Notes: a model not told the origin generated them from the sequence alone. DNA of 64,000 bases from Candidatus Aenigmatarchaeota archaeon (GCA_026397315.1 JAPLVC010000006.1:117108-181107); one strand, 5' to 3'. Shown: positions 49,947 to 60,459, numbered from the stretch's first letter. Made by a program: numbers and translations.

Positions 49947-51140
49947 TTACACGAGCTTCGTCTGCTTTTGCTTGCTGCCTGTTTTCTTCCTCTTCAAAAC
50001 GATCAGCGTTATTATCACGGCAGCTCCGGCTACTCCCGCGATGAAGACTATCAGTTCAAAGCTTAACGCGAAGCCTGGCTTGTTCAGTATTTCCACGCCC
50101 GTTTCCATGGTGTCGTTCTTGTCCAGATAATGCAGGACAGCGACCGCGGTGTATTTGCCGGGCTCTATGCCCCTGCTGGCGTCGAGATAGCTTATCACAA
50201 CCGGCGTATCGAACGCAGCGACTGTGATGCTCTCGCTTTTATGATAGCTCAAATCGTTTCCTTTCGCGTCCTTCACGAAAAGCTCCAAGTATGCTCCCGT
50301 TATCTCCTGGTTCCAGTAGCTCTTGATTTTGGTGTAAACCTTGCCTATGCTGCCGTTGACTACTGATTCGGCTGTGACGTTCACTATTTTTATCAGCGGC
50401 GCGCCGAGATTGAACTCCTTGATGTGCTTAGCTGTTTTGTCGTCGTAGTAAATCGTTAGCTGGGCTTTGTAAAGACCGGCTTCGACGTTGGAAAACCATG
50501 TTGCACGGAAAGTCTCCCTGGCGGTTGTGGCGACGGGCTTGCTTTCCAGTTGCATGATATCGATGGTCCTGTTGTCCTCATACATGACCTTGATTTCGCC
50601 CCACGCTTTTTCTATGTTCTCCTTTCCCTGGTTGACTATGTATGCCTCGAAAATGACCGTGTCGTTGACATTCGCGTTCTTGATGTCAAGCCATATGCCT
50701 GCATATTTTCCTGGATATGGCACCATCACCTCTGTTTTGATGCCGACCCTCACCTTGGCGATGGCCACGCCCGGCTGAGGCGCTACATACTCCTCCGCCC
50801 ATAGGATTGACGTGTGCGTGCCCGGCTCTTCAATGTTTTCAGGCAGCTTTATCTTGAACTTGAAAGCCTGGAAGCTGTGCGGTTCTATTATTAAGTGATC
50901 TTCCGTTGTTATGGTAAAATACTGCGCAATATCGCCATTGGGGTCGACGTATAAGTCGACTTCCCTTGGCTCGTCCAGGCTGTTCGATACCGTGCCGTCG
51001 AACTCCTGCTCATAACCCGGCACGAAGTTCATCGTTATTTTAGCTGGCGAAATGCCAAGGGAATACGCTGGTCTGGCTAGGATGAATAAGAAAAATAGTA
51101 AAAAAAGGAACAAACAGGCTACTCTTTTCATGGCATTCAC
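49947..51140 (-). CDS. Membrane-anchored three-Ig protein, DUF916/chaperone-like; paralogue of 55270-56487
   Basis: Signal peptide, LGISPAKI--NFVPG, FKIKLP----PG-H, VPYPGKYA, C-terminal TM. Confidence 0.75.
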   Translation of the reverse strand: MNAMKRVACLFLFLLFFLFILARPAYSLGISPAKITMNFVPGYEQEFDGTVSNSLDEPREVDLYVDPNGDIAQYFTITTEDHLIIEPHSFQAFKFKIKLPENIEEPGTHTSILWAEEYVAPQPGVAIAKVRVGIKTEVMVPYPGKYAGIWLDIKNANVNDTVIFEAYIVNQGKENIEKAWGEIKVMYEDNRTIDIMQLESKPVATTARETFRATWFSNVEAGLYKAQLTIYYDDKTAKHIKEFNLGAPLIKIVNVTAESVVNGSIGKVYTKIKSYWNQEITGAYLELFVKDAKGNDLSYHKSESITVAAFDTPVVISYLDASRGIEPGKYTAVAVLHYLDKNDTMETGVEILNKPGFALSFELIVFIAGVAGAAVIITLIVLKRKKTGSKQKQTKLV

Positions 51141-51166
51141 TAGAGATAATTGCCTTCGCTTATATT

Positions 51167-51838
51167 TTAAGCCGCCACGGCGCCTACTGTTATCATCACG
51201 CCTTTGGAGCCTGTTGCGTCGCTGGGCACGGTTATGTTGAAGTGTATTCTTATCTCATCGGAGCCGGAATTGCTGAAGTCAAGCGAGTTGCAGACAACTG
51301 TTTCCGATGTTGCAAGCGTTGTCCACGAGCCTTCTCCAAGCGCGCCGAAATCGATGCCGCATGCTGCCGTTTCGTTGTTCTTGCCCTTGAAGTAAGCTAG
51401 GCCGCCGGTTCCTATCCAGTCCGTCGCAGCCTGCGCAGCGCTCATGTTAATCGAAACGTTCACGTTGCCCGCGTTCTGGACCACGAACGGGAAAGCGCAA
51501 TAGGTATCCGTGCCGTCGCACGTTCCCCAGACATCGCCTCCGCTGGTGCCGTTGCCTTCAGTGCCGTCGCGGAAAGTGTCCCAGTTGTCCTGCTGCGTCG
51601 TAAGGGTCCTGATCGCGCCGCCAAGGGCACCCGTTCCGAAGTTGGTCACGCTTCTGATCAGTATTATGTCAGTGCTCTGCCCTATAGTGACGTTCGCCGT
51701 TCCTGTCCCTGTGGATGCTCCGCCTGTAGTCTTTATTTTCACTTTGCCGATGTTTGAAATTGTCAGGAAACTGAAACCGGACACTACTATAGCAATTACC
51801 AACAGAACCGCTATCATGTTATTGGTTATCTTAGCCAT
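51167..51838 (-). CDS. Putative filament/surface subunit A
   Basis: N-terminal TM, TGGAS-TGTGTANVTIG, PFVVQNAGNVNV, FNITVPSDATGSK; no C-terminal anchor. Confidence 0.75.
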   Translation of the reverse strand: MAKITNNMIAVLLVIAIVVSGFSFLTISNIGKVKIKTTGGASTGTGTANVTIGQSTDIILIRSVTNFGTGALGGAIRTLTTQQDNWDTFRDGTEGNGTSGGDVWGTCDGTDTYCAFPFVVQNAGNVNVSINMSAAQAATDWIGTGGLAYFKGKNNETAACGIDFGALGEGSWTTLATSETVVCNSLDFSNSGSDEIRIHFNITVPSDATGSKGVMITVGAVAA

Positions 51839-51941
51839 TATTTTCCCCCCATAGTTATATTATTAGCATCATTCGGACGGCAGTATCACGAGCCCGATGT
51901 ATCCGTTCTTCTGGTCCGTCGTCTTTTCAGGCGCAGGCAGA
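51801..51941. repeat. 141-bp exact direct repeat, copy 1 (5' leader and first codons of subunit A)
   Basis: Identical to 52690-52830 (offset 889). Confidence 0.95.
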
Positions 51942-59519: not shown

Positions 59520-59782
59520 ATTTGCACCATTTTCCTTCCCACAGCGCCGCCGACGTAATAGAGCTTCGCCTTGCCAACATTCCTGCAGCTTATCATACCC
59601 TTGGCTTCTAGAACCGCGAGATACTTTGAAGTCGTGGTGCGGTGGGCGTTTATCTTCTGCGCGACCTCGCCTATCGTAAGTGACGTTTCTGCCTTTCTCA
59701 GAACATCGAATATAAGATTCTCGATTCCTATCGCCCCACCCAGCTGAAAACGACATTGATGTTGAACATCAATGACTAACAT
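59516..59782 (-). CDS. Winged helix-turn-helix regulator
   Basis: LTIGEVAQKINAHRTTTSKYL-VLEAKG-I--RNVGKAKLY; start uncertain. Confidence 0.85.
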   Translation of the reverse strand: MLVIDVQHQCRFQLGGAIGIENLIFDVLRKAETSLTIGEVAQKINAHRTTTSKYLAVLEAKGMISCRNVGKAKLYYVGGAVGRKMVQI

Positions 59783-59850
59783 TAATTATTGCGTCAAGCC
59801 TGAATATAAGATTTTCCTGATTTGCCAGCATTTTCAGTCCGGTCGCTGGT

Positions 59851-60459
59851 TCAGTATTTGCATCCGGTCAGGCTTTCTATCGAGGCGCGCGTCTGCACGC
59901 CAGTGTAGTTCTGACCGTTGTAGAATATGACAGGTATCGTGCTTATGCCGATCTGCTGGCACGCCTGCAGATTCGTTCCCGTGCAGTCGAAGTAGACCTT
60001 GTTGGCGAAGTTGCCTATTACGAGAAGCTGCTGATATGTGTTGGCCTCGCTCTTCTGGCCGAATAGCACGAACTTCTTCTCTTTAAGGCAATCGGCAAAG
60101 TTTTTCTCCTTGTCAAGCGTCTCCATGAAACTCGATATTTCAATCACGCTTCCGGCCTCCGAGAAGAACCTGCCGTCCTTCGTGACATACGTTTCTCGTA
60201 ACACGTCACCGTCGGCCAGCTTAAGCCTCAGGAGAATTTTATATAGGTTGCCTTCATCCTTCACAGTAAGCGCCTCGACGTCGCTTTCCGTAAGAGTTCT
60301 GTAAGTCGCGACGACGCTGTCGACGACTTTCTGCTGCGAGCTTGCCGTGATGGTGTTCTGGAAAAGCGTGAACGCCAGGACGACGGCAAGAACCAGGATT
60401 ATCCCCATGAAAACCGCGTCCTTTTTGGCGATTTTTACCGGAGCCTTTTCCGAAGCCAT
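59851..60459 (-). CDS. Membrane-anchored DsbC-N-like plus degenerate thioredoxin-fold protein
   Basis: TM; LYKI...YVTKDGRF; FADCL-EK---FG; YFDC-----C--GIS-IP; GVQ----ESLTGC; no CxxC. Confidence 0.65.
   Translation of the reverse strand: MASEKAPVKIAKKDAVFMGIILVLAVVLAFTLFQNTITASSQQKVVDSVVATYRTLTESDVEALTVKDEGNLYKILLRLKLADGDVLRETYVTKDGRFFSEAGSVIEISSFMETLDKEKNFADCLKEKKFVLFGQKSEANTYQQLLVIGNFANKVYFDCTGTNLQACQQIGISTIPVIFYNGQNYTGVQTRASIESLTGCKY

Follow-up and report, generated by a model that had tools for sequence, protein, structure and literature searches.

Little is understood of the way in which DPANN archaea attach to hosts, and a gene cluster in one of them raises the question whether such cells could build an adhesive fibre by strand exchange. 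The cluster occupies positions 49,947 to 60,459 of a 64,000-nucleotide stretch of DNA from a Candidatus Aenigmatarchaeota archaeon (GCA_026397315.1 JAPLVC010000006.1:117108-181107; the window). The window takes up the final 64 kb of its 181-kb contig, and the genome, of 1.05 Mb, is 91% complete. Homologues of the window proteins are labelled Aenigmarchaeota, Nanoarchaeota, Woesearchaeota and Pacearchaeota, which places the host among the DPANN archaea. An earlier interpretation, made without database searches (the sequence-only reading), had proposed a non-type-IV adhesive filament with pilin-like subunits, a tip adhesin and chaperone-like anchors, and the gene positions that it named were all borne out by open reading frame (ORF) listing and translation. 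The analysis reported here makes it very likely, from a predicted complex and from synteny, that a membrane protein with three immunoglobulin-like (Ig-like) domains pairs with the subunit domain by chaperone-like strand complementation. It also makes it probable, with rather less assurance, that the subunits would polymerise into a strand-exchange fibre with a lectin tip, served by membrane-anchored chaperones and no usher.

Subunit 1 (P0002, 223 aa; 51167..51838, minus strand, as are all features of the window given below unless stated) and its paralogue subunit 2 (P0003, 222 aa; 52059..52727) are 67% identical. Both consist of an N-terminal hydrophobic helix, a TGTANVTI strand and a beta domain. 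The ORFs, the identity between them and a structural model thus confirm the claim of two subunits of about 222 aa with a strand-like N-terminal segment and a beta domain. Neither subunit matched Pfam, and an exhaustive HMMER search recovered a family of 351 representative clusters, nearly all of 190-250 aa. In an alignment of 86 members a T-G-x-A motif is conserved (G39 in 82/86), followed by an amphipathic strand, G46-x-A48-x-[VL]50-x-[IV]52 (G46 in 81/86), and by an Ig-like beta-sandwich with a conserved Cys pair. An AlphaFold2 monomer model of subunit 1 (predicted local distance difference test, pLDDT, 87) placed the helix at residues 6-30 and the sandwich from residue 58. The amphipathic strand was unfolded in this model (residues 31-50, pLDDT 53-69) and lay outside the monomer fold. 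On the basis of the family column counts and the monomer model we take residues 43-52 of subunit 1 (51683..51712) as a candidate donor strand; its counterpart in subunit 2 is at 52578-52607.

The N-terminal helix is itself strongly conserved, with N6 in 84 of the 86 sequences and S5, A10, A16 and S20 each in upwards of 70. Ordinary signal peptides are far less conserved, and a basic n-region is missing from the helix (51749-51838, family alignment). The subunits had been described as unanchored; this is uncertain, since cleavage of the helix is only inferred. The subunits also have no class III signal motif: they start M-x-E/K-I-S/T-N, about five residues before the helix, with no K/R-G/A site. 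With no class III signal in the subunits, and no assembly ATPase or platform gene among the locus ORFs, a reading as archaeal type IV pilins was rejected.

The structural neighbours of the subunit model were compared using Foldseek and two VIA searches. No match in the PDB was significant (Foldseek E >= 0.03; best Z 6.7-6.8 in both VIA searches), and the family profile found nothing useful among PDB sequences. The top neighbours were nevertheless mostly subunits of donor-strand fibres, as the sequence-only reading had led one to look for, though at weak scores (Z <= 6.8): FimG, CsuA/B, Hyper2/CanA, TLP-1, AbpA, TasA, PapA, CfaB and Tafi. Z was 6.8 for Hyper2, 6.6 for TLP-1, 6.3 for the Pyrodictium cannula fibre, 6.1 for CanA, 6.0 for AbpA, 5.6 for TasA and 5.3 for Tafi. 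No WxL chains were present among the Foldseek or VIA neighbours, and the WxL domain PF13731 was found neither in P0002, P0003 and the 86 family members nor anywhere in the genome at E <= 1. The subunit is not a WxL domain.

The two genes have a 5′ end in common. An identical 141-bp stretch, comprising a 103-nt leader and the first 38 coding nucleotides, occurs at 51801-51941 and at 52690-52830, whereas the gene bodies are about 70-87% identical. A TTTAAAT box stands just 5′ of this stretch in the downstream gene only (subunit 1, P0002), and the beta-helix gene described below overlaps the upstream copy with its 3′ end.

The proposed partners of the subunit domains are two membrane proteins, chaperone-like protein B (P0001; 49947..51140, with a probable true start at the ATG at 51131), whose gene accompanies the small subunits, and chaperone-like protein A (P0007, 405 aa; 55270..56487), whose gene accompanies the adhesin. 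Each has a signal peptide, three Ig-like domains and a C-terminal transmembrane (TM) helix, and the two are 31% identical (E 8e-50). A VPYPGKYA motif is invariant or nearly so across the family alignment, so that the two paralogous three-Ig membrane proteins sharing this motif, noticed in the sequence-only reading, stand as described. The three-Ig profile gave 192 matches at E <= 1e-3; the 120 of these that are listed span E 1e-232 to 1e-94, and among the matches listed they are DPANN wherever named. No PDB sequence matched the family profile.

The fold of the three-Ig proteins could be compared more closely. The model of protein A (pLDDT 87) has a linker between the third Ig domain and the C-terminal TM helix. 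Foldseek matched it to a WxLIP of Enterococcus faecium bound to a long WxL protein (9i25_C, E 7.8e-9). When domains 1-2 (residues 28-249) were superposed by VIA re-alignment, Z was 13.4 on WxLIP 9i1y_A (209 residues, 16% identity), 11.8 on 9i25_C, and 11.0-11.3 on whole SfaE, FimC and Caf1M; domain 1 alone superposed on FimC 1-120 with a root-mean-square deviation of 3.2 Å. The chaperone-like character first proposed for these proteins is therefore supported by superposition of domains 1-2 both on WxLIP and on chaperones of the PapD type. At the sequence level, PF11797 (WxLIP_HBD) was matched by 20 of 48 three-Ig members at E < 0.01 (best 1.2e-6) and PF06030 by 1 of 48, in all cases below the Pfam cutoffs; P0007 scored 18.7 bits on PF11797, for which the cutoff is 28.9.

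Protein A has no N-x-S/T sequons and no Cys. Elsewhere in the locus N-glycosylation sequons number 29 in the beta-helix protein, 31 in the adhesin and 6-7 in the subunits. They are thus dense in the parts presumed to be exposed and missing from chaperone A, an asymmetry that we counted in favour of a fibre.

The ectodomain of chaperone B (residues 28-355) was modelled together with two copies of the mature subunit, using alignments supplied by us. The interface score ipSAE was 0.69 (0.70, 0.69 and 0.67 in the separate runs) against 0.04 for the best control; the mark used to judge such complexes was reached by 58/80 solved complexes and by 2/110 mismatched pairs. The runs agreed in at least 63% of contacts, and partner pLDDT was at least 71. 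Chaperone B residues 121-135 (50736..50780), the last strand of domain 1, which immediately precedes the VPYPGKYA hinge in residue order, pack against subunit residues 211-222. The register runs 128:216, 129:217 and so on to 135:222, that is, parallel to the last strand of the subunit, with an expected error of 1.0-1.5 Å for chaperone residues 128-135 paired with subunit residues 216-222. The first strand of chaperone B (residues 28-36) rests on subunit residues 51-66. Subunit residues 43-50 remain outside the interface, leaving the candidate donor strand largely free. The predicted geometry is that of chaperone-type donor-strand complementation, and it bears out, in a model that passes with parallel pairing, the subunit-chaperone complex that had been suggested.

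The remaining component with a subunit domain is the adhesin. The long ORF at 56940-59756 contains DUF2341 and Laminin_G_3 by Pfam, in the order signal peptide, DUF2341, LamG, Cys-rich and FN3-like modules, and a C-terminal subunit-like domain (56943..57383). Orthologues begin at Met80 of this ORF (ATG at 59519); the adhesin gene is therefore 56940..59519, and the long ORF overcalls it by 79 codons. The last ~145 residues resemble the subunits by BLASTP (E 4e-6), by family profile (1.9e-14) and by hhalign (probability 97.8, E 1.1e-12, 141 columns). A LamG adhesin ending in a subunit-like domain, as proposed at the outset, is thus borne out. This domain has no free N-terminal strand. In relatives, adhesins ending in a subunit domain carry payloads of ~420 aa to 9724 aa. 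Three loci of relatives (L034, L035 and L039) have adhesins that are otherwise 55-60% identical but do not contain the block formed by DUF2341 and LamG (residues ~153-485 in the long ORF), so the payload looks like a swappable module.

The start of the adhesin gene overlaps the stop of an 88-aa winged helix-turn-helix (HTH) ORF (59516..59782) in the sequence ATGA at 59516-59519. This ORF scored 26.5 bits on HTH_IclR (cutoff 22), which confirms the HTH regulator of the sequence-only reading; many other winged-helix families match it too.

We searched 201 genomes of the phylum with the subunit profile (E <= 1e-10) and the three-Ig profile (E <= 1e-30). The subunit was present in 26 genomes and the three-Ig protein in 27, with both in 24; among the exceptions, several involve incomplete genes or genes at or close to the end of a contig. 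Related genomes are not independent in such counts, yet the pairing spans several families. In 18 loci of relatives, a three-Ig gene follows each subunit-domain gene directly downstream, or with a gene of the P0008 type or a short gap between them. The rule holds both for the small subunit and for adhesins across the whole range of payload length. Two families, f1 and f3, share the gene order P0010, adhesin, P0008, chaperone A, (P0006), beta-helix protein, subunit(s), chaperone B and an 828-aa Ig-repeat protein, and more distant families keep just the subunit(s) and one three-Ig gene. Strong co-occurrence (24 of 26 subunit genomes) and a gene order that recurs in many genomes are thus the outcome of the synteny comparison to which the sequence-only reading had pointed. 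In one locus of the same genus (L039:11844-13763, genome G158) the genes for the subunit and for chaperone B are both broken up between frames, which could reflect frameshifts, decay or assembly error; the adhesin module there looks intact.

These results bear on the possibility that the locus encodes unrelated, co-regulated envelope or S-layer glycoproteins, or a type IV pilin-like system, in which the Ig resemblance is generic. Ig-like sandwiches are common, all subunit matches have Z below 8, and the strongly conserved N-terminal helix is reminiscent of type IV pilins. Set against this are the missing class III signal and assembly ATPase, a complex model that beats its controls and has chaperone geometry, the strong two-domain match to WxLIP and PapD-type chaperones, and strict pairing across many genomes. 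As for an S-layer, Foldseek matched the three-Ig model to just one chain of that kind (7ptp_A), at rank 42. We consider this explanation improbable.

A fibre assembled by strand exchange is, in our judgement, the probable explanation, and we infer signal cleavage, subunit-subunit exchange, tip position and host attachment as its steps and outcome. The 222-aa subunits would be exported and cut, probably after the conserved TG-x-A motif. Three-Ig protein B, anchored in the membrane, would take up each of them, and the final strand of its first domain would fill the groove of the subunit's incomplete Ig fold, parallel to its C-terminal strand. The N-terminal strand of the subunit (G-x-A-x-V/L-x-I/V), left free in this state, would then displace the chaperone strand on the preceding subunit, joining subunits head to tail. 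The DUF2341/LamG adhesin has the same C-terminal domain with no free donor strand; it could therefore only accept a strand, and would sit at the tip, served by its own chaperone paralogue A. The winged-HTH gene is coupled to the adhesin gene and probably regulates the set. The adhesive filament of non-type-IV kind that had been proposed thus fits the architecture, the synteny, the fold resemblances and the predicted complex, with its Dsb-like component lost (see below) and with filament formation a probable step. None of the outcomes that the sequence-only reading had named as counting decisively against it was encountered.

The scheme closely resembles one described recently in bacteria. WxL clusters have been reported to build a pilus in which ElrE, a DUF916/DUF3324 protein with a TM helix, serves as the membrane-anchored chaperone and ElrD subunits are joined into a polymer by the N-terminal strand of the mature protein, [S/T]-x-[G/A]-x-[V/I]-x-F, with an LPxTG protein terminating the fibre; the ElrE-ElrD strand geometry is that of chaperone-usher chaperones, and the system was stated to be confined to Bacillota (bioRxiv 10.64898/2026.10.17.759780). 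The present locus likewise has a membrane-anchored, chaperone-like Ig protein with a C-terminal TM helix beside a putative pilin of ~220 aa, and the mature N-terminus of that pilin would be an alternating small/hydrophobic donor strand. It shares with that system a large adhesin with a C-terminal pilin domain, lectin or beta-helix payloads, the lack of usher and ATPase, and a chaperone strand predicted to run parallel to the last strand of the pilin. The structural match to WxLIP (Z 13.4; PDB 9i1y, 9i25) and the sub-threshold PF11797 matches point in the same direction, and chaperone and pilin genes are adjacent, within a limit of 10 kb, here and in about 24 genomes. The present system differs in that its host is an archaeon, its subunit has neither PF13731 nor the dual W-x-L motif, its chaperones carry a third Ig domain and exist as two paralogues, one per client, and its proteins are heavily sequon-laden. 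An LPxTG terminator, sortase and peptidoglycan are not expected in an archaeon, and no search for them was made. Full-text literature searches turned up no paper connecting WxL clusters, in this sense, to DPANN, or chaperones of this kind to archaea. We regard the locus as an archaeal variant of a kind of system first described in 2026.

Pam pili of Candidate Phyla Radiation (CPR) bacteria offer a second comparison. They contain the pilins PamA/B, two TM-anchored PapD-like chaperones, PamC/D, and PamR; their terminator is TM-anchored and donates a strand, and the pilins are reported to be exclusive to CPR (PMC13278184). Set beside them by description only, the present system likewise belongs to an ultra-small episymbiont and has two PapD-like proteins, each with a C-terminal TM helix, as its proposed chaperones; its Ig-like pilins would exchange strands, and its tip protein would act as an acceptor only. 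Pam pilins have two domains with a linker strand, whereas the present subunit has a single domain with an N-terminal strand.

A possible counterpart of the Pam terminator is encoded in relatives. Eight of them have an ORF of 70-82 aa just upstream of the first subunit gene (L033:6429-6662, L035:6530-6772, L036:6501-6749, L037:10978-11205, L039:11561-11788, L043:3696-3911, L044:4153-4383 and L045:4865-5077). The products have a subunit-like N-terminal hydrophobic helix followed by two short strands of the G-x-V-x-V-x-V type. Speculatively, and from their sequences only, these small strand-only proteins may be membrane-anchored strand donors, terminators or anchors. When a gene encoding a TM helix and two strands was looked for in the present genome, only the subunits themselves matched; the second subunit gene sits here where relatives carry the 70-82-aa ORF.

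Among better known systems, the chaperone-usher pathways (Fim, Pap, Caf1, Csu) share with the present locus the fold of FimC, SfaE and Caf1M over both chaperone domains (Z ~11), predicted complementation by the last strand of domain 1, parallel to the last strand of the subunit, an N-terminal extension with a conserved Gly, and a FimH-like arrangement of a lectin on a pilin domain. They differ in that the present system has no usher, outer membrane or periplasm and its chaperone is membrane-anchored. Neither usher (PF00577) nor PapD_N (PF00345) was matched at E <= 1 anywhere in the genome, which is 91% complete, so the remark that no ATPase or usher was visible holds, for the ATPase across the locus and for the usher across the genome. 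AbpA bundling pili, Sulfolobus threads, cannulae (CanA) and Tafi are, like the proposed fibre, archaeal, non-type-IV and formed by strand donation between Ig- or jelly-roll-like subunits. To our knowledge none of these strand-donation fibres of Archaea (AbpA, threads, cannulae, Tafi) depends on a chaperone. They have no dedicated chaperone gene, whereas here a chaperone-like gene accompanies every subunit-domain gene, and they have no sequence similarity to the present subunits. The obligate neighbouring chaperone-like gene argues against membership of the chaperone-free TasA/AbpA type, for which the structural scores (TasA, AbpA and TLP-1) are all below 8, with no Pfam or PDB sequence match.

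Several findings weigh against the fibre and its proposed kinship. The modelled complex had no subunit-subunit interface, contacts being reported for one subunit copy with the chaperone only. Similar chaperone-pilin and WxLIP-WxL complexes have already been solved, and the pass of the complex may therefore mirror likeness to them and not be independent evidence. The subunit fold matches are weak (Z < 8, Foldseek E >= 0.03), and PapD/MSP-like domains score similarly, so the donor-strand neighbours are a hint and not proof. The subunit shows no WxL signature, with neither PF13731 nor the Trp-x-Leu motif in its dual form, and conservation of its helix (N6 in 84/86) is unusual for a signal whose cleavage we assume. 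As the PF11797 matches fall below cutoff and CARDB matches the same three-Ig proteins about equally, remote homology of the three-Ig proteins to WxLIP is plausible but not proven. No gene for a terminator or anchor was found in this genome.

The main rival is static surface display, in which the three-Ig proteins would be permanent membrane anchors, each holding one subunit-domain protein, and no fibre would form. The complex model, with its anchor-client interface alone, fits this, as do the one-to-one gene pairing with separate paralogues for adhesin and subunit and the third Ig domain, which could serve as a stalk; both features would be in keeping with a permanent anchor. This was also the earlier model of WxL clusters, before 2026, the 'WxLIP platform' (PMC10599100). 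Yet static display gives no role to small proteins that consist of a docking domain and a conserved, free amphipathic N-terminal strand, nor does it explain why adhesins have no such strand. In chaperone-usher and Elr systems, pairing of this parallel, chaperone-type kind is the mode with less stability and primed for exchange (bioRxiv 10.64898/2026.10.17.759780), and the strand-only membrane proteins of relatives would make sense as terminators of a fibre. We judge static display unlikely.

Other genes of the cluster add to its surface repertoire. A secreted right-handed beta-helix protein (52775..54673) was confirmed by Pfam as Beta_helix/NosD (PF13229, 3.9e-14), in agreement with the sequence-only reading, and keeps the same position in families f1 and f3. 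P0008 (56465..56950), a small signal-anchored protein of 161 aa, always sits between adhesin and chaperone A. P0006 (54757..55200, plus strand, opposite to the rest of the locus), a small signal-anchored protein of 147 aa with no Pfam match, holds the corresponding position in family f1 (four genomes, E 4e-53 to 2e-26). A subunit-like domain was sought in the C-terminus of the beta-helix protein, in P0006 and in P0008, and none was significant (hhalign E 0.16, 0.21 and 0.043 respectively); P0008 shows a weak, motif-level resemblance to the subunit. P0010 (59851..60459), a signal-anchored protein conserved upstream of the adhesin in family f1, had been called Dsb-like. It has no Pfam match, and although four Cys are conserved, CxxC is absent from it and from its orthologues; with no CxxC the label is unsupported, and we rejected it.

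The conserved block extends beyond 49947-60459, because the 828-aa Ig-repeat surface protein (47425..49911; Big_9, He_PIG, cadherin-like) lies directly downstream of chaperone B in at least 10 genomes. The 828-aa gene is flanked in family f1 by genes for DUF58 and for BatA/VWA on the opposite strand (45540-49911). Immediately upstream, the locus is adjoined by a gene (60627-63998) that runs off the contig end; its product exceeds 1123 aa and has no Pfam match. A giant ORF at the corresponding upstream position in L035 is weakly similar to it.

Beyond this locus the results suggest a broader proposition, which we advance tentatively and which, taken whole, is somewhat doubtful. It holds that Archaea would here have their first chaperone-dependent donor-strand-exchange pilus, widespread in DPANN and built from a pilin family with no described kin; that true homology would unite its membrane-anchored chaperones with bacterial WxLIP/ElrE, and perhaps with PamC/D too; that two domains of life would have the usher-less chaperone pathway in common, whether inherited or passed between episymbionts and monoderm hosts; and that in relatives a membrane-anchored 'double donor strand' mini-protein would replace the sortase-linked terminator. 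If this is true, assembly by membrane-anchored chaperones would extend beyond Bacillota and CPR bacteria to Archaea, and a new pilin family and chaperone variant would be available for structural work. It would also supply testable candidate host-attachment fibres with lectin, beta-helix and giant adhesin tips. The locus is thus a concrete candidate for the means by which DPANN cells may display adhesins and hold on to their hosts.

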